A stretch of DNA of 64,000 nt from Podospora anserina. Lineage: Eukaryota. The notes beneath the pieces are model-generated. The model searched no databases and had not been told where the DNA came from. It saw only the letters and a list, made by a program, of their open reading frames with translations. The translations under genes and the position numbers were made by a program. Position 1 is the first letter of the stretch; each line of letters starts with the position of its first letter. The DNA lies in the NCBI GenBank assembly GCA_017654855.1, contig CM030338.1, positions 2,108,001 through 2,172,000 on the forward strand. Reading direction: 5' to 3'. Positions 5,892-17,082 of the stretch are shown here, one piece after another.

Positions 5892-8800
5892 ATGGCACGT
5901 GGAAAGGGTTACAGCAATGAGCCTCTCAACTTCAAGGCGCTTGCCGGTAAGTGTTACATGGTTGCAGAGACAAGGCTGATGAAAGTAAACAATACACATG
6001 CTGACCATTGAAATGCAGCCCAGCTAGTCCATTCAACAGCCACGCAGCGCAAAGAAGCTCTTGACAGTATGCCTCTCTCGCTCTGTCCTGCATTTATGTT
6101 TATGTATACTGATTACCCTGACATAGGTTTGTTGGAGTTTTTCAAGACGGCAGAGAAAGGGGGCCTTCAGAGTCAGAAAGTGTAGGTCCCATACCTCAAT
6201 CCACAGCATACCACAACTAATACAAAACTAGTAATCCCTTTGATGACAAGTCATACCACTCCATCTACGAAGCCCTCTTCCGATGCACAGTCTTGGAAAA
6301 GGCAAGCTACTTCACTTCCAAGAAATCAGCCAGAGCCAGTGCTACTGCCAATGCCAGACTCGAAAAGTGCGCCGAGGTCCTCAGGCTGGCTGTCCGCCAT
6401 GGAGCTTCACGGATCAAGCGCAAAACAGCCAGAGCCATCATCGACCACATCACACAGGTGCTCCAGGGACCCGATGATACCTACATCGCACCTCTGCTCA
6501 AAGATTATGCCAAGGCTTTGTGCACATTCCTTCAGAACTCGGCCAATGTCGAAAATCTCTCCGCCTTTTCAGGTGAGAGCTGGGATGCTTGTGTCGACTT
6601 TTGTGTCGAAGCTCTCTCTCGCTATCTCGAGGTAGGTGGAAATGATAGCGGCTCTCGCGCCTCCCCGGCGCCAACTCTGAGAGCATCATCCGTCGGGCTT
6701 TCATCCCAGGGCGGAAACCAGATTGGTAGTCAGGTCGCTCTAGACTTTTTGTCATGCTTGAATTATCTGGTGGCTGCACCAAATGCACCGGTACTACGAC
6801 GGGCAGGGGAAATATCCCGAATCATTCTTCAGATTCTGCAACTTCGCCAGATGAAAATAGGGGAGCTGCACAAAGTGGCCTTTTCTGCCCTCAACAGAAT
6901 CTTTACTCGCACCCAGACCGACGACATCGCTCTTTCAAAGAGGCTTGTCATGACTCTGACCCCTTTGCTCTCTCATTGGTGGCAGCCGCGAGCCTTATCC
7001 CGGGACGCAATGCTGAATAGTATTCGCGATGAGATGCTCAAGACCATCTATGCTTCTCATCTTTATCTGGAGAGCATACTTCGGGAGTCGACAGACGAGT
7101 CTTTTCTTCAAGATGTGGAAGAACTTATGGATGCTCTTTGGTCGGACTACTCGAGGAGAGAAGAACGCGCAAGGCTCCAGCTTGATGATATCACTTTTAC
7201 TGGAATGCTCCTCCCATCCGATCATCCAACCACTGGCGTCTTCAGCCTTCGTCCGTACAATACAGGAGGCGAGCAAAATTGGGCGCTTTTGCAGAATCTC
7301 GCCACCCTAGAGGCCATCTACGCCCGCAGCTCAAACAAGCCATTTTCGCAGCAAGAGCCCGAGAATGACCAGCCTCGCAAGAGACGTCGAATGGTTAACA
7401 CGCCAAACAGGCTCCATCAGAAACTCAATTCTCGGGATCCTGCAGTGCAGCTGACAGCATTACAACTCGTGCCTTTTCTGAGCCGCCAGAAGCTGCTTAC
7501 TATCGAAGAAGCCACAGAGGCCATCACAGACTTGTCGAAATGTGTCACGGCGAAGCAAGGTGTCGTGGCATCGTGGGCGATGATCGCATGCTCCAGCCTC
7601 ACCTCCCATGAAGTTTGTCGAGATGCCTCCCTGTCTCAAACCTGGAAGCAGTTGTGGCAGCTTGGTGTGCGGTCTGTCAGCCTGGCACCAACCACACGTG
7701 CTGCCTCGGTCTTCTTGGACTCCGTGATCAAAGCGTCCCTGATCCCAAGACATGAGTTGGCCGGTGATGTGAACCACATGATCATAACCGCCGATATCAG
7801 CGGCCCTGCGATCCTGGTTGACTCTTCTCTCAAGTTGATGCTGAGCCTCCTGCGTCTACGCAATACCATGTCACCCAATGCCAGCCAAGCTACGACCAGC
7901 CATGTCATCCGGTGGGTTTTTGTCAAGTGGAATCCAGCTGAACTGACCTATGCCTCACTTCATTCGGTACATACGGCTCCGTTTGATCTGACCAACCTCC
8001 TGAGAGGCTGCTTTGGGATGCCAGCTTTGAAGATGGGTGCTCCTCTCCGGCTCTTTGGGGGAGCGATTGTACAGTTCTGGAAGAAGCAAAGTCAAGCCTA
8101 TCCGCTGATGCGGTATCTGCTGCTTCTTGAGGACGAAACAACATCAGCAACGACACTCATGGCTGAACCCGAGGATGTTATCCTGCCAGAGGAACAGCAA
8201 GAACAGACGGTCGACCCAACTGGGTCGCACACCGCAAAGCGCCTTATCCTCGAGCTACTGTATCCTAAACTGGAAGAACTTCACCAGATCACCGAGTCGT
8301 GGCAGAAGCGCGGGCCGGATGGTGTTGCGCCAGTTGCGATATCTGCGGATCGGTTGCAGAGCATGATGCTTGCTTGTCTTGTTGGCGCCACCCTCCTTCC
8401 AGAACTAGTCAATCTCAACTCTTCCATGTCCAAAGATTTGGAGTCGACACTTTTTGAGGTCATTGACGGCGCCTTCCGAGTCATTCTCGCGGCTCCTCAA
8501 ATCGATGAGTTCTTTGAACTGGTGTTGACGACGGTGGTCCCGTTTATCCCGCCCTTTGTGGAAAGCCAGGTGGCAGCGCTCAGGAAGGAACAGTCTCACT
8601 TGTTGAAGCTGTACTCGAAGCTGTCGATTGCTCTTCAGGAAAAGGCTCAAAAGGAGGCCTTTGGACGGAGCATGGATGCTATGGACATTGACGACGAGTT
8701 TGAGTCCCAGACGAGCCAGAGTTCGGCTGTGTCAAAGGGGAAGACGTTGGCGAGGAGGGATAGTCTTTTGTGTTGGACCCCTGAGGCGTTTTATCTCGAG

Positions 8801-11800
8801 ACGACGCTGAGGGTGCATTACCTGGAGATTATCAGGCAGGATGAGGGGGAACTGGGGCATGTACCTGAACCGATGATGGAGCAACTGCTGAGTTTGGAAA
8901 AGGAGCAGCTGTTGACTTGTCGGGTGTTTATGAAGGAGTTGTTTTCTTGTGGGTGGATGGCGAGGTTGAAGACTGTGGTGAGGGTGTTTGAGACGGTTGG
9001 GGGAATTATTTCGGAGGATGAGTTTTCGTGCTGTGAGGTGGCGCTTTGCACGTGCATTGATGTGATGGATGGGTTTATTTACTTTTGGACGGATCAGAAG
9101 TTAGAGGAGGCGATTGGGCGGATGGTGGGGGATCTGTATCATTACCTTGTCAAGAGCTCGCTGCCGAACAACTCGATGAGTCCGGTTGTGCAGGGGGTGT
9201 TTAGTGGGCTGCTTTTTCATATACTGGAGGTGAGGTCGGGGTATGCGGGGGATCTGGGGTTGCCGAGCGCGAGGAGCACGTTGTTGGGGGTGTGTCAGGA
9301 GGGGGGGATGGAGGTGAAGTATGAGATTGGGAAGGGGTTGCCGGGGGTGTTTGGGTTGTATGTGCTTAAGACGCACGATGACATTTTCCTGGATGTGCTG
9401 GACAGCTTGCCTACCGATCCGTCGATGGAGGAGGGGATCGCGTATAGGTTGTTTGTGTTGGCGGAATTGGCGTGTAGGTGGCCGACGCTGTTGAGGAGGT
9501 GTATTTATCACATCTTTGAGACGCCGGGGAAGATTGTGAGGAGTGTGAGGTATGCGGGGTGGTGTTTGAGGAGGATATCGAAGGAGTTGAAGTTGAGCGG
9601 GCCGGAGGAGCTGTTTCGGCTGTTTGCGCCGCAGCTGCTTTACACGTGGTTGGATGAGAACTCGATTGAGGATATCCCGTTTGAGATCTTTGGGTTCAAG
9701 AGCCTGCAGGATTTGCTGGCGGAGGGGCAGACGGAGGCGGCGGCGATTATGATTATGAGGGGGCAGGAGACTGAGGCGTTGGAGTTGGCCAAGATGCTGG
9801 GGTTGACGCTGCAGGAGCTGGTCAAAAGGAACTTTACAAAGATCATTGCGTATTGCATCGCGCACGATGTCAGTGTGCAGAGGGAGGAAGGGCAGATCAC
9901 GGGGGAGAAGAGGCTGATCAAGATTCTTATTAAGGAAGGGTTTCTGGAGCAGATTCACCTCAATTTTGCCGACATTATTGCAACGTTTTTTGAGACCTTC
10001 GACCAGGAGGATCCGGTCGAGAAGGCGTTTAGACGGAATGAAGGGCTTGGGTATGCGGCGGATATTGTTGAGATGATCAAGGAGTATGGCCATTTGCCTA
10101 CGAAGCTTCCGCCGAATCAGCAACCGTGCTTTAGGGCGAAGTATCTCCCCATTGAGATGCTTCACCTTTTGAGCAGAACGCCGTATGAGTTGGATCAGAT
10201 TTGGACGCCGGCGTTGGTGGTGTTTATTGCTCGGAAGCTCCTCAACACCATTCACCCGGCCCTTGGCCCTCTTCACGCCTGCTCGGTTCTGCGCAAGATC
10301 AGAGTGTTGATCTGCCTTGCTGGTCCTACAGCACTTACCGCCTACCCGTTGGAGATGCTCCTGCACTCCATCCGGGCCTTCGTCGTCGACCCCGAGTGCG
10401 CAGACGATGCGCTGGGCATCACGCAGTACCTCATCATCAAAGGCTCTGACCACCTCAGCAAAACCCCATCCTTCTTCGCGGGCTATGCGCTCTCGTCCCT
10501 GGCCGACCTGAGGGTATTTTTGGAATCCTCCCAGTCGAGCACAACTCAGGAGTCCCAGTTCCGAGCCACAAAGTCGAAAGCCCAGGTGTTTCATGATTGG
10601 TTTGGGAAGTATCTCAAGGGGTATGAGAGCAAGATTCTAAAGGAGAACCCTGAGCATCTTAAAGCTTTCAGGGCGATCACTCAGTCGGCAGCGGAGATCA
10701 GAGTCATGGGCAACGCAGAGAGGGGAACGAATGAGAGTAACTTGCTCATGGAGATCCTCAAAGATTGGGACAGGGCTGATAGCGAGGGTGATGAGCTGCT
10801 AAATGAACCTGCTCGTGGTGTTGCCTTGAGGATGCTGTGTGGGCAGTTTGGGCCTGCGCCGAAGGAGAGGGGGTTGGATGTTATTGGGGAGGATGAGGAG
10901 GCTGTCAAGTATAAGGGGGTGGTTTGGAAGAGTTGTATGGAGGAGGGAGGGATGGGGTTGAGTGGCGAGTACTTGGCCTGGGCGGGGAGGGTGATTGGGC
11001 GTGGGTTTGCCGCTAGTGGGGAAGTTCCTGGGGGGCTGTTGAAGGAGAGCAGACTGGAGGAGTACAAGACGTTGAGTTGTAAAGCGGGTGGGAAAGAACT
11101 AGGGAGTTCAGAGGAGGGGTTGCTGAATCTGATGGAGCAGTTGACTGTCAGCGGGGATTGTTTGACTGCTGGGCTGGCGGAGGCAGCGCTGAGGACTGTG
11201 TTCAGTGACGCGGCTGCTGATAACTTCCAGGAGCTTGTGGCAGCTTGCCAGCGGAGTTTGAGTGAAGCTCTGGCGGATAGTTTGGATTGGGAGCCGTTCC
11301 GGACGCCGCAGTCGGATCTGGTCAAGGTGGAGAAGGTAAGGGAGCAGGAGGTGTTTAGTGGGGCGAAGTTGGGAGAGGCGGACTGGGCGAGAAAGTTGAC
11401 GACGTTGTTGGCGCAGGCGGTGCCGGATGATGTTACGCTGAGAGTGCTGCCCCCGATATTGACCAAAGTCAAGGGGTTTGCGGAGCAGGCTTTTCCGTTT
11501 GTGGTGCACTTGGTGCTGAGCTATCAGCTGGATAAACAGCAGGGGGTGAAGAGGCAGCTTTCGGAGGTGATGAAGGAATGGTTGAAGAACGAGGAGGAGG
11601 GGGCGAGGGAGAATGTGAAGTTGTTGCTCAACACGATTCTGTACCTGAGGACGCAGCCACTTGCCGGGGAGGCTTCCATTGCAGATCGGGGGCATTGGTT
11701 GGAGGTTAATCTGACGAGTGCGGCTGCTGCTGCGACGAGGTGTGGAATGTTCAAGGTTGCGTTGCTGTTTGCGGAACTGGCTTCGAGCGAGGAGTCGAGG

Positions 11801-14800
11801 GCGTCGAGGAGGTCATCGGCGATTAGGGAGGTGGAGGATTCGAGCGAAATTTTGTTGGATATCTTTGAGAATATTGATGATCCGGATGCGTACTACGGGC
11901 TGGCACAGGATGCTTCGCTGAGTACGGTGTTGGCCAGGTTGGAGTATGAGAATGATGGTGGGAAGAGTCTTGCTTTCAGGGGGGCGCAGTATGACAGTCA
12001 TTTGAGGAGTCGAGATGCTGCCTCGAAACAGGATGGGCAGGCGCTTATCAAGGCGTTGAGTAGTTTGGGTCTGGCCGGGTTGTCGAACTCGTTGTTGCAG
12101 ACGCAGCAGAGTCTGGATGAGTCTTCTAACTCGCTGGATAGCACTTTTACGACGGCGAGGAGGCTGGAAATCTGGAATTTGCCGGCGCCGGCGACAAATG
12201 ATAATTGGGCGGTGACGGTGTATAGAGCGTATCAGAGTATGCACCAGGCTTCGGATATTGAGGCTGTCAGGGGTGTTATTCATGATGGGCTTCGGGGGAC
12301 CATCAAGCACTTGACCAGCAAGAGTCTCAATACGACGAGCATGAGGCACCAGCTGGGTGTGCTGGCTGCTTTGGCGGAACTAGATGATGCTCTCAGTATC
12401 ACTGACCCGGCTGAGATGAAGAGGGGACTTCAGATGTTTGAGACGAGGTCGAAGTGGATGATGAGCGGACGGTATGAGGATGTCAGTCAGATCCTGTCTT
12501 GTCGGGAGACGACATTGAGTATGTGGAGCCAGCATCACAAACTGAGAGCGGCAACTATCCCACCAGCAGATGCCCGGTTTGCTCAGATTAAAGGACTGCT
12601 GCTGTCGTCTGATATCTTCCGTTTCCACCGACAGCACCAAGAGACGTTGAATTTGTCAACCACACTCACCGATCTGATCCAGCCAAGCGAGGCTATGGGG
12701 CTCAATGTGGATGCAGCTATTCGGATGGAGGCGGCGAATTCACTGTGGGATCAGGGGGAGATGATTTCTTCCATTAGGATGCTGCAAGCTATTGACAAGG
12801 ACTCGTCGTTGAAGAAGCAGACGATTCCTGTCAGTCGATCGGATTTGTTGGCCAAGATTGGGTTTCAGGTCTCGGTTGCTAGGCTGGAGAGCCCGGATAG
12901 CACACAGAAGAAGTATCTTGAGCCGGCGCTGAAGGAGCTCAGGGGCAAGAATGAAGGCAAGGAGGCTGGACAGGTGTTTCACCAGTTTGCCATGTTTTGT
13001 GATGAGCAGCTCCAGAACCCGGATAGTTTGGAGGATTTGGCACGGCTGCAGAACCTCAAAAAGGGCAAGAGTGATGAGGTTGAGCAGCTGAAGCAGTTGA
13101 TTTCAAGCTCGAGGGACTCGCAGACGAAGAGCAGGTACTCGAGTCACTTGGCGAAGGCTCGGCAGTGGCTCGATTTGGATCAGCAGGAGTTGAGAAGGGT
13201 TGAGCAGTCGAGGACTGAGTTTGTGAAGCTCAGTTTGGAGAACTATCTGCTATCTTTGGCCGCTTCGGATGAGCATAACAACGATGCGCTGCGGTTCACG
13301 GCTCTTTGGCTGGAGAGGTCGGAGGAGGATGCTACCAATGAGGCGGTCAAGAGGTACATTGGCAAGGTCCCGACTCGAAAGTTTGCGCCGTTGATGAACC
13401 AGCTTTCGTCTCGGGTACAGGATCAGAAGACTCTCTTCCAGAATGTGCTTATTGATCTCATTTATCGGATCTGTGTTGATCATCCCTATCACGGGATGTA
13501 TCAGATCTGGTCTGGGGCGAGGACAAAGGTCAATAAGGACGACGATGTTGCGGTTTCCCGGCAAAAGGCGACGGATAGAGTTGCTAAGGCACTTACCAGG
13601 GCCGAGGCGGTGTCTGCCATCTGGCCGGCGATTGACCAGACAAGCAGGGTGTACCATATGCTCGCCATGGATCGGGACACGAACAGGTTCAAGCAAGGTT
13701 CCAAAATTGCCATCAAGGACTCTCAGCATGGGCCCAGCTTCCTCACGACGTTGTCAAAGTATAAGATTCCGCCGCCGACCATGCAGATGGAGCTGTCGCC
13801 TACGTGTGATTACAGCCATATCCCGATGATTGTCAAGTTTGATCCTTATATGACTATTGCTTCTGGTGTGAGCGCGCCAAAGATTCTGACGGCGATTGGG
13901 TCGGATGGGAGACGGTATAAACAATTGGTCAAGGGGGGTAATGATGACTTGCGTCAGGATGCTATCATGGAGCAGGTTTTTGCTGCCGTGTCGGAGTTGC
14001 TTAAACTTCATCGTACCACCCGCCAACGAAACCTCGGCATCAGGACGTACAAGGTTTTGCCGCTGACGTCCAGTTCGGGGTTGATTGAGTTTGTCTCGAA
14101 TACTATACCTCTGCATGAGTATCTCATGCCCGCTCACGAGAAGTACTACCCCAAGGACCTCAAGGGGTCGCAATGCAGGAAGGAGATCTCGACGGCGCAG
14201 ACAAAGACTACTGAGCACAGGATTGCGGTTTACCGCAGGGTCACGGAGAAGTTCCACCCGGTGATGAGGTACTTTTTTATCGAGTATTTCCCCGACCCTG
14301 ACGAGTGGTTCCACAAGCGCACCGCCTATACGAGAACCACGGCGGCGATTTCCATGCTGGGCCATGTGTTGGGGTTGGGTGACAGACATGGGCACAACAT
14401 CCTCCTCGACACCAAGACTGGCGAGGTAGTCCACATTGATCTGGGCGTGGCGTTTGAAATGGGAAGAGTCCTGCCAGTCCCGGAACTGGTGCCGTTTAGG
14501 TTGACGAGGGACATTGTCGACGGGATGGGAATCACCAAGACCGAGGGTGTGTTTAGGAGGTGCTGCGAGTTTACGCTTGATGCGCTGAGGGAGGAGGCGG
14601 GGAGTATACAGACTGTTTTGGACTCGCTGAGGTTCGACACGTTGTATCAGTGGAGCATTAGCCCGGTGAGGATGGCCAAGCTGCAGCAGAATGCGAGGGA
14701 GGAGGATGATGGGGAGAATGAGGAGAACGAGGAGGCGGGGGGGGAGAAGAAGGGGGTCAAGGGGAACGTGAACGAGCCCAGCGAGGCGGATAGGGCGATT

Positions 14801-14926
14801 GAGGTTGTCAAGAAGAAGCTGAGCAAGACGTTGAGCGTGATGGCGACGGTGAATGATTTGATTGAGAAGGCGGGGAGTGTGGGGAATTTGGCGGTTTTGT
14901 ATTCGGGGTGGGCTGCTTATGCTTGA
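5892..14926 (+). CDS. TEL1: Serine/threonine PIKK kinase Tel1/ATM
   Basis: Predicted exons 5892-5946, 6019-6066, 6127-6181 and 6232-14926, with GT-AG introns that keep frame. Features: N-terminal TAN-like region (DKSYHSIYEALFR), FAT region, PI3K-like kinase motifs (KGGNDDLRQD, GLGDRHGHNILLD, HIDLG, PELVPFRLTRD) and FATC end LAVLYSGWAAYA. Confidence 0.96.
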
Positions 14927-15427
14927 CGAACATATGAAAATGAAAATAAGGGGGCATCTTGGTGGATTTTATGGATTGATATTTTGGGCTTGGTATGAGG
15001 CGCAAATGATTAGGATGATGTACCTATGTAATGAGAATGTAGACACGGCCAAAGATGAATAAAGCTGTGGTAATTATCTTGATAATTTTGCTGTTTGCTT
15101 TCGAAGGCATGGTGACACGCGAATGATAGAGGTCAACCGCCTACACTAGTCTGTATGAAAGTTATCCGAAGAACGAATTTGCACCCGAAGTATGTAAAAC
15201 ATCCCAATCCACTCGTGTCTCACTTCCAAATCACCGCGATGATCCACCTATTATCACTTCTGCAGCTATATCTCAAGCCAACCGAGAAAAGGATCCACAA
15301 CATCTCAGCCATTGTCACTTTCGCAACTATCACCAAGCATGTCCTTCCCACCAGATCATCTCCAACAACACACCGCACTTCCCCCCTCCTCTCAATCCAA
15401 ATCAATAACCTCCTCACTCCGCATCTG

Positions 15428-16729
15428 CTACTGCTGCTGCTGCTGCTGTTGCTGTTGCTGCCCCCCACTAATAGGCAACAACCCCCTCCCCAACTCCCCC
15501 TCGGTCGGATGCAACGCATACACCCCCGCCTCCGACCTCTCCCCATCAAACACCACAAAGTTCTGAATCGGCTGCTGCGTCCTCCCAAGCACATTAATCA
15601 CATCCTGCGCCAGCTGCCCCCCCAACACCGCCGCCACAGGCGAGACCTCCCCCCCAATATTCTGCAAAAACGCCCTCAACGTCTCGCTCCTCAGCGTCTC
15701 AGCCGGCAGCCCAAGCGCCTTGTGCTGCTCCCCGCACAAAATCGTAAACTGCGCCAGTTGCGCCTTATCATTCGGGTTGGGCCGAATGCCAAACTGCGAT
15801 TCAAACTCCCAGAGCCCTCGCAGACAAGACAAAATAGGGGTGACCACTTTTTTGCGGCGGGGGGATTTGAGAATTTCCGCTGGGAGGGGGGAGGAACTAG
15901 CCAGTAGCCATGTTGAAAAGAGTTCTCGTTTTGTGACGTTTTCGACTTTGGGGTCGTTGGGGTCGGGGCTGGAGGAGATGATTGATCTTGTGGGGGATTC
16001 CGGTCCTACCACGGTGGGGACGTTGGAGATGGATCTTGAGATGATGAAGTTGTGCTCGATGAGGTCCGAGAACAAGAACCCGTACATCCCGTGAGAGCCG
16101 GCCGCGTAGAATTTGCGGTTGTTGAGGCGGGTGGCTGTGTTGATTAGGTTTAGGGTGGGAGCGTCGAGGTCGGTGGCGATGATGATGTCAAAGGCGGAGA
16201 AGTAGGAAGGGGGTTTGAGGCGGATGTCGAGGGTGTCGATGTTAATACTAACGCGGGGGTTAAGGCGTTGAATGTTGGTTGAAGCGGCGATGGCGCGGTT
16301 GGTGCCGACTGGGGAGCGGTCAGAGGGGAGGAAGAATTGGGAGGTGAGGTCGGAGGGTAGGACGGGGCAGTGGTCGCAGAGGGTCAGGGAGTTGATGCCG
16401 GCTAGGACGAGGTTTTTGGCGATTTCGTTGGCGAGGGCTTTCATTGTTATGAGGAGGATGTTGGCGTTGCGGATGGATTGTTGGGCTTTGAGACCCCAGA
16501 GGCGGATTTGTCGGTCGTAGAGGGCGATTTCATCTGGGATGGGGGTTAGTAACTGTAAGATGTGATGGGAGAGAGGTGAGAACTTACCTGCGCTGATGCC
16601 ATTTGATATGGTCGAGGTGGGTGCTGGAACAGATCCATTGGTGTTCTCTTGCATCACAGGAACTGTGAGATTCTGGGTGTTCCCAGTGCCATTGGGGTTG
16701 CCGGCTGGTTCGGAGGTTGGAGCCTCCAT
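15428..16729 (-). CDS. AOS1: SUMO-activating enzyme E1 subunit Aos1/Rad31 (SAE1), ThiF family
   Basis: Motifs DEIALYDRQIRLWG, ANEIAKNLVLAGI, LNPRV and PVAAVLGGQLAQDVINVL. Intron 16534-16587 (GTAAGT...CTAAC...CAG, 54 nt, in frame). C-terminal polyQ ends at TAG 15428-15430. Confidence 0.92.
   Translation of the reverse strand: MEAPTSEPAGNPNGTGNTQNLTVPVMQENTNGSVPAPTSTISNGISAGKFSPLSHHILQLLTPIPDEIALYDRQIRLWGLKAQQSIRNANILLITMKALANEIAKNLVLAGINSLTLCDHCPVLPSDLTSQFFLPSDRSPVGTNRAIAASTNIQRLNPRVSINIDTLDIRLKPPSYFSAFDIIIATDLDAPTLNLINTATRLNNRKFYAAGSHGMYGFLFSDLIEHNFIISRSISNVPTVVGPESPTRSIISSSPDPNDPKVENVTKRELFSTWLLASSSPLPAEILKSPRRKKVVTPILSCLRGLWEFESQFGIRPNPNDKAQLAQFTILCGEQHKALGLPAETLRSETLRAFLQNIGGEVSPVAAVLGGQLAQDVINVLGRTQQPIQNFVVFDGERSEAGVYALHPTEGELGRGLLPISGGQQQQQQQQQQ
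15431..15460 (-). repeat. CAG/CAA trinucleotide run encoding Q10 at the AOS1 C-terminus
   Basis: Plus strand reads ctgctgctgctgctgctgttgctgttgctg immediately beside the stop codon. Confidence 0.9.
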
Positions 16730-17082
16730 CGTGGCCAGTCCTCAAGTGAGTTTCTCGAGCTCGTCGAGTCGATAATTGAGGTTGGAAATGATGGTGCAAG
16801 AGAAGAGTCGAAATGAGAAGCCGCAGAGATCAAGGAAAGTCTGGAGTAAAAAACCCCAACGCCAGCTCCAAGCCAAAGGAATGACGATCGACCACTCCTG
16901 AGAGAGTGAGAGAGGTGTTGGTGTGTGTGTCTGTGTGTGAGGTTGAACGTGACAGTTCGCGTGGCTGCAGGTTGTGTTTGATCACTCCAGGCAAACGGTG
17001 CAGCCTTGTGGACCAACCGAGACGGAAGGAGGGAAGGGGTTCCTGATAAGCTCGGGCTCCCGTTTCTTGTGATTATCTTGCT

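Follow-up and report, generated by a model that had tools for sequence, protein, structure and literature searches.

The locus described here lies on the minus strand of a 64,000-nucleotide (nt) stretch of the Podospora anserina genome (assembly GCA_017654855.1, contig CM030338.1, positions 2,108,001 to 2,172,000; this whole stretch is called the window, and all positions are counted from its first letter). It carries the gene for Aos1, the small subunit of the SUMO-activating enzyme (E1), in which a TAG stop codon stands where closely related species have glutamine, and the reading favoured below is that this stop has recently removed a conserved C-terminal end resembling a SUMO-interacting motif (SIM). 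The gene consists of two exons, starting with an ATG at 16729 and ending with the TAG at 15430-15428, which are separated by a 54-nt GT..AG intron that keeps the frame if it remains unspliced. As judged from its sequence relatedness, it is AOS1/SAE1, as the sequence-only reading of the window had already proposed: the Pfam family ThiF (PF00899, the ThiF-type inactive adenylation fold) matches the window protein at 8.6e-21 and its sibling protein P0121 at 3e-21, and the best relatives of solved structure are human SAE1 chains (2.4e-48), which are matched over the whole SAE1 length, with residues 42-389 of P0121 aligned to residues 8-344 of 346. The E1 enzymes of ubiquitin and NEDD8 match the first ~170 residues only, at 1e-29 or weaker, so that the closest relative of solved structure is neither UBA1 nor NAE1 nor UBA2. 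Of 1820 significant matches, those that carry a name go by aos1, RHC31, rad31 or ubiquitin-like 1-activating enzyme E1A; the nearest named proteins come from Podospora and Triangularia, and the cluster at 90% identity includes protein models of P. anserina S mat+.

A view on the end of the gene in the minus-strand frame shows the order GGG GGG (CAG/CAA)x10 TAG CAG ATG CGG AGT GAG GAG GTT ATT GAT TTG GAT TGA, which translates into ten glutamines (Q10), a stop, the peptide QMRSEEVIDLD and a second stop, the A of the TAG corresponding to the T at 15429 of the plus strand. These letters are the same, one by one, as those given in the sequence-only reading. An open run of 11 codons behind a stop is expected with a chance of about 0.6 by our arithmetic and is unremarkable on its own, but the frame behind this stop exceeds chance because it is homologous to the translated C-termini of the sibling proteins P0121 and P0128 and to a terminal consensus, "EVIxLD", of more distant orthologues.

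The comparison with the siblings indicates how the stop arose. The 90% identity cluster of Aos1 holds 9 distinct sequences, six of which stop after Q10 while three continue. Those that stop are the two protein models of P. anserina S mat+ (415 and 419 residues), a pair of unspliced open reading frames (ORFs) of 433 residues, present on 12 and 2 contigs as long as 44.7 kb, and two spliced ORFs, which therefore stem from RNA. Of the continuing ones, P0121, which P. pseudopauciseta shares with a second species of Podospora, has Q11-MGSEEVIDLN, P0128 has Q11-H-MGSEEVIDLD, and P0122 (labelled Cercophora samala) ends in ..GKGEVINLD. P0128 aligns to the window without any gap and places a Gln opposite the TAG, from which it follows that the ancestral codon was a glutamine codon; one C>T substitution, CAG to TAG, would account for the difference, its polarity resting on the comparison of proteins. 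The 11 codons behind the stop are, by the same comparison, former coding sequence. Both proposals had been made beforehand, namely that the peptide behind the stop represents real coding sequence and that a recent CAG>TAG nonsense change lies within the polyglutamine (polyQ) run, and both gain support from the siblings, which translate the same C-terminus and carry Gln at this position; the recommended comparison of Aos1 C-termini across species thus found a conserved rather than an unconserved downstream peptide. The stop must be young, since only 2 of the 415 residues of the protein body separate P. anserina S from P0121. With a divergence this small, no conclusion on selection can be drawn from the 33 intact bases behind the TAG. 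Within the 12 codons of the tail, the lineage of the window has acquired 2 changes, the stop itself and a Gly>Arg exchange two codons further on. This excess over the body (2/12 against 2/415 codons, Fisher p=0.004) is based on small numbers and is compatible with relaxed constraint as well as with a tail that is generally evolving fast. The features of the locus are compiled in Table 1.

Table 1. Positions of the AOS1 features in the window and the evidence on which each of them is placed.
Feature	Position	Strand	Evidence
AOS1 exon 1	16588..16729	-	ATG 16729-16727; N-terminus agrees with orthologues
54-nt intron, GTAAGT...CAG	16534..16587	-	joint of 16533 to 16588 in 4/4 RNA-derived runs
AOS1 exon 2, coding part: ThiF fold and start of fungal tail	15431..16533	-	Pfam ThiF, SAE1 alignment
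PolyQ run, ten CAG/CAA codons	15431..15460	-	sequence; siblings have 11 Gln
TAG stop, derived nonsense codon, Gln in siblings	15428..15430	-	sequence, alignment, colinear RNA contig of run X1
11 in-frame codons QMRSEEVIDLD, formerly coding	15395..15427	-	match to C-termini of P0121 (..QMGSEEVIDLN) and P0128 (..HMGSEEVIDLD)
SIM-like motif EEVIDLD, core VIDL with acidic flanks	15395..15415	-	sequence, orthologue enrichment, PIAS1 SIM
TGA, ancestral AOS1 stop	15392..15394	-	sibling proteins end at the residue directly before
3' untranslated region (UTR) on RNA contigs, at least to 15100	15100..15391	-	contig pieces of X15, X16, X9 and X1

The sequence-only reading had also left room for a sequencing or assembly error, with a genome that really contains CAG, and trinucleotide repeats do suffer from such errors. 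The same stop recurs, however, in two independent protein models of P. anserina S, in the unspliced ORFs on 12 and 2 contigs and in the spliced ORFs derived from RNA, and 22 runs from 10 studies contain half or more of the sampled words of the stretch. For four runs of unknown tissue, the assembled contigs, which drop minority variants, were compared with the window over 15100-16800. All four carry the joint of the 54-nt intron, so their contigs are derived from RNA. A spliced contig of 2372 nt from run X1 is colinear with the window from 15100 to 16533, with one differing letter (at 16480), and thus the mRNA carries the TAG and the same tail; a spliced ORF of 390 residues on a contig of the same length as that of X1 (2372 nt) likewise stops after Q10. 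Runs X15, X16 and X9 contribute contig pieces covering 15100-15415 or 15147-15415, their contigs ending between about 15416 and 15535, with 15416-15468 excluded as repeat; as this stretch is G-rich and repetitive, no inference is drawn from the uncovered parts in these runs. With the TAG found in models, genomic contigs and RNA alike, an assembly error is rejected and, barring a source of error common to all of these assemblies, retains a negligible likelihood.

Two further ways around the stop were considered and set aside. A bypass of the TAG by splicing is rejected, since the RNA contig of X1 is colinear and no plausible GT..AG intron is present, and a reinitiation at the ATG two codons past the stop, which would release a free SIM peptide of 10 residues, is judged unlikely after an ORF of 415 codons.

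Some observations on the same contigs concern the gene and its surroundings. At the minus-strand codon 16480-16478, the window reads CAA and thus Gln within the conserved stretch LKAQ[E]SIRN, while all four RNA-derived runs carry a G>C difference at 16480 that yields Glu, the residue which every orthologue in the 18-sequence alignment also has; one stored ORF (P0125, on 2 contigs) shares the Gln allele with the window, and by this comparison it is a strain-specific missense change at a position conserved to 90%. In the spliced ORF P0127 (380 residues, from a single 4359-nt contig), the 35 residues NFVVFDG...LLPISGG (about 15461-15565) are missing and ..QQPIQ is joined straight to the polyQ run, without GT..AG ends on the missing piece; this may be an artefact of assembly or reverse transcription at the CAG repeats or a deletion allele. 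In three of the four runs, the contig of the 3' UTR and tail (15100-15415) is 2.6 to 5 times as deep as that of the coding part (15500-16800), with mean word depths of 190 against 74, 56 against 12 and 66 against 13; this excess could reflect a 3' bias or a second transcript. The neighbouring gene on the plus strand, an open frame of 2901 codons (6221-14926) with a C-terminus like those of PI3/PI4 kinases, converges on AOS1 and ends at 14926, and the further length of the X1 contig is sufficient to reach into it. From reading its translation alone, the product is judged to be a kinase of the Tel1/ATM type.

The part of Aos1 affected by the stop lies outside the ThiF fold. Human SAE1 ends opposite residue 389 of P0121, so that the ~37 residues which follow are a fungal extension outside the fold. 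Across 18 aligned orthologues, the linker in this extension is free in length and composition and is probably disordered, while the ends converge on "EVIxLD"; more distant relatives end in VIDFD, EVINLD, EVVTLD, QVIALDD or QVISLD. In the set of 122 orthologues that remains without the six stop-truncated alleles of P. anserina itself, 42 contain a strict V/I/L core of a SIM within their last 8 residues, 36 of these together with D/E, even though near misses such as VIDFD, AIVID and AIVLE were scored as negative. The same core occurs in 3983 of 49923 other 8-residue windows (8.0%), and in 8.2% of those in the 52 residues before the end. Among 150 distant representatives (from clusters at 50% identity), 100 have a recognisable anchor for the end of the fold, and a strict core at the end was found in 9 of the 35 with tails of at least 30 residues. 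A terminal hydrophobic-acidic motif also recurs on long-tailed fungal Aos1 proteins, the orthologues P0195-P0240 among others, with ends such as ..AVVLLD, ..AEVIEL, ..GIVVLD, ..VEIIVD and ..PSQVISLD, and short-tailed Aos1 proteins, which end ~10 residues past the fold, are without it. The motif is absent from the listed proteins of Neurospora, Sordaria, Chaetomium, Thermothielavioides and Colletotrichum, and has therefore been lost or replaced repeatedly.

The consensus of SIMs consists of a hydrophobic core of the form psi-psi-x-psi or psi-x-psi-psi, with V, I or L at the psi positions. Such a core is present behind the stop as V-I-D-L at 15409-15398, with EE ahead of it, D residues within and after it, and a predicted flexible position behind a linker of variable length. 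The SIM of PIAS1, given as VIDLT in PMC4907222, contains the same core. The sequence-only reading had called VIDL with its acidic flanks a canonical SIM, and its likeness to a SIM in core and flanks stands and is extended by the conservation of SIM-like ends, while the step from this likeness to function is kept conditional here: the fungal Aos1 tail would be expected to bind SUMO. Some of the matching titles and parts of one review (PMC12687455), a limited basis, gave no earlier account of a SIM at the C-terminus of Aos1.

Taken together, the TAG is probably a young CAG>TAG nonsense change that removed a conserved SIM-like C-terminal motif, and thus a plain, tolerated truncation. This reading builds on what was observed, namely the identity of the gene, the presence of the TAG in both DNA and RNA, a Gln in the siblings and the conservation of the motif. 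A C>T change in one CAG of the Aos1 polyQ run would have produced the TAG in the lineage of P. anserina, and the main product would now be an Aos1 of 415 residues that retains the whole ThiF fold but has lost its last 12 residues, including EEVIDLD as hydrophobic-acidic motif at the end of a variable and probably disordered linker. The 33 bases behind the TAG would have become the start of the 3' UTR and would have escaped decay only for want of time, the change being so recent. Loss of the motif would be tolerated, as it presumably was in other families of Sordariales, and a small leak past the stop by a near-cognate tRNA-Gln appears likely but is not needed for a truncation. It fits with this view that no form of the stop-carrying protein extended by W or Q was found among the 9 members of the cluster, nor among 52 matches (from 69 candidates, the best of 76% identity) to a read-through of the last 112 codons. 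Several points nevertheless weigh against a simple truncation. The search that returned these 52 matches is a weak negative, with no Podospora fragment among them, and the evidence from RNA consists of majority-rule contigs of unknown tissue. The C-terminal motif has been kept across Sordariales, Coniochaetales and many other fungi, which suggests a function, so that a clean loss in one species might come at a cost. Finally, the stop is located in two contexts that are known to be leaky, one for RNA editing and one for readthrough.

In the first of these, the deaminase Tad2/Tad3/Ame1 of fruiting bodies would convert UAG to UIG, which is read as UGG (Trp), so that the sexual stage would regain the SIM-like tail as ..Q10-W-QMRSEEVIDLD while vegetative cells make the short form. 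Fungal A-to-I editing is described as specific for the sexual stage, frequent in Sordariomycetes and biased toward UAG (PMC11156358, PMC11087585), and genes of the ADAT type are up during sexual development of P. anserina according to a preprint (bioRxiv 10.1101/2024.12.09.627484). No editing catalogue of this species was found among the papers listed. In Fusarium graminearum, 71 genes are reported to need the correction of a premature TAG, the TAGs often deriving from codons other than TGG (PMC10776026). The published mark of such "functional pseudogenes" is that outgroups conserve what lies 3' of the stop (PMC13684035), by which a corrected premature stop can be told from plain stop-loss; such conservation is found here in P0121, P0128, P0122, P0002 and more distant orthologues. 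The sequence context speaks on both sides: according to PMC9600606, the positions that weigh most for editing are -1 (U) and +1, +3 and +4 (purines), and the site G-U-[A]-G-C-A-G has the preferred bases at -1, +1, +3 and +4, whereas its G at -2 and C at +2 are depleted bases. The same holds for the structure, since the A of the TAG is predicted to be unpaired in 98% of the sampled structures, but the local fold is no more stable than those of shuffled sequences (z of 0.62, -0.03 and 0.18) and only about one sampled fold in three at +/-30 nt has the A in a hairpin loop. The hairpin-loop share is 32-38% at +/-30 and +/-50 nt, compared with 93% at +/-15 nt, where the local hairpin is weak; in 2000 sampled folds at +/-30 nt, the A was in a hairpin loop in 32% and in an interior mismatch of a weak CAG-repeat stem in 66%. 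The base rate is also low, with 403 stop-loss genes (PMC13123824) among 4292 genes ending in TAG (PMC13684035), or ~9%, in F. graminearum, and a W-form is missing from the stored proteins (9 cluster members, 52 short matches), which leaves editing of this stop distinctly unlikely. A second U-A-G triplet is present 39 nt upstream of the stop, with its A at 15469 in an AGU codon for Ser (..LLPISGG); 100% of the sampled folds (-21.3 kcal/mol at +/-30 nt) put this A into a hairpin loop, and its context (U at both -2 and -1, G at +1, +3 and +4) fits the published editing preferences better than that of the stop. Editing at 15469 is predicted to give an exchange of Ser to Gly.

In the second context, a near-cognate tRNA-Gln(CUG) would decode the UAG at the percent level or above, and in every tissue the resulting protein would match the full-length Aos1 of the ancestor exactly, so that the effect of the mutation would be blunted. 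The site, CAG-UAG-CAG with C at +4, resembles a yeast Q-stop-Q motif which, together with C at +4, increases readthrough (PMC13192750): CAG-TAG-CAA gave 1.6% in ADE2 and 4.7% in snf5-Q267X, and the residue inserted in a Q-rich yeast gene was Gln, in line with the insertion of Gln at UAG by tRNA-Gln(CUG) as reported in PMC4150775. These yeast values were, however, largely obtained in a [PSI+] background and on Q-rich transcripts with 7-20% Gln, which is above the 6.3% (26 of 415 residues) of Aos1; CAG flanks gave a small increase only, natural QXQ or QQ stops were without readthrough in ribosome profiling (PMC13192750), and elsewhere Tyr was the main residue inserted at UAG, with 92% compared to 5% for Gln (PMC4150775). 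Readthrough at the percent level or above is unlikely here. Both processes may also be thought of as acting jointly, the TAG having become fixed since editing to UGG in fruiting bodies rewrites the stop with the help of readthrough by Gln, and the SIM tail then being made mainly or only in the sexual phase, a scenario that must be regarded as improbable. As to its kind, the favoured truncation is a lineage-specific nonsense change, possibly also a young site of premature-stop correction or of QXQ readthrough.

In many filamentous ascomycetes, Aos1 closes with a SIM-like motif carried by a variable linker, similar to the C-terminal SIM of human SAE2. P. anserina, which serves as a laboratory model, represents a natural knock-out of this motif with siblings that retain the intact allele, so that its function is open to testing by allele swap. 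The debate on whether the editing of stop codons in fungi is adaptive or permits harm lacks cases that are young and can be polarised, and Li and Zhang (PMC13684035) point out that outgroups are usually too distant; the outgroups of AOS1 differ at 2 of 415 residues. If editing and readthrough did take place, AOS1 would be a datable case at the species level of harm-permitting or restorative editing that switches a short linear motif of a core enzyme. The sibling species with CAG would be natural controls if the stop is edited. If neither process occurs, the locus represents an ordinary lineage-specific truncation.

Several known systems are comparable to parts of this case. With the SIM of PIAS1, the Aos1 tail shares an identical hydrophobic core, V-I-D-L, but PIAS1 is an unrelated protein, and the core of Aos1 is located at a free C-terminus with acidic residues on both sides (PMC4907222). 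Human SAE2 (UBA2) carries a SIM at its extreme C-terminus, which fills the SIM groove of E1-bound SUMO in some crystal structures, and is therefore similar in that a motif of the SIM type terminates a flexible extension of a SUMO E1 subunit (PMC12687455). It is the other subunit, however, human SAE1 being without such a tail, and the fungal Aos1 tail is a putative SUMO binder. The "pseudogenes" with restorative editing in F. graminearum (Qi et al., 2024; PMC10776026) resemble AOS1 in having a TAG inside an otherwise conserved frame of a Sordariomycete, a downstream part conserved as coding in outgroups and, often in the published cases, a TAG derived by one change from a codon other than TGG, whereas AOS1 codes for a housekeeping enzyme rather than an innovation of the sexual stage, is affected in its last 12 codons instead of a domain, and would receive a Trp by editing instead of the ancestral Gln. 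FgDBF2, FgMOB1 and FgCDC14, for which stop-loss editing was described (Du et al., 2026, PMC13123824; critique by Li and Zhang, 2026, PMC13684035), also end in UAG followed by a short in-frame extension, which is 11 residues long in FgMOB1 as in AOS1; their extensions are poorly conserved, disordered and destabilising, while that of AOS1 is a conserved motif which the siblings translate constitutively. In the yeast Q-stop-Q system (Leslie et al., 2026 preprint; PMC13192750), as in AOS1, a nonsense codon replaces a Gln codon in a glutamine run, is framed by Gln codons and has C at +4, and insertion of Gln restores the original protein, but the organism is a different one, Aos1 with its 6.3% Gln is not Q-rich, and the flanking codons are CAG and not the stronger CAA.

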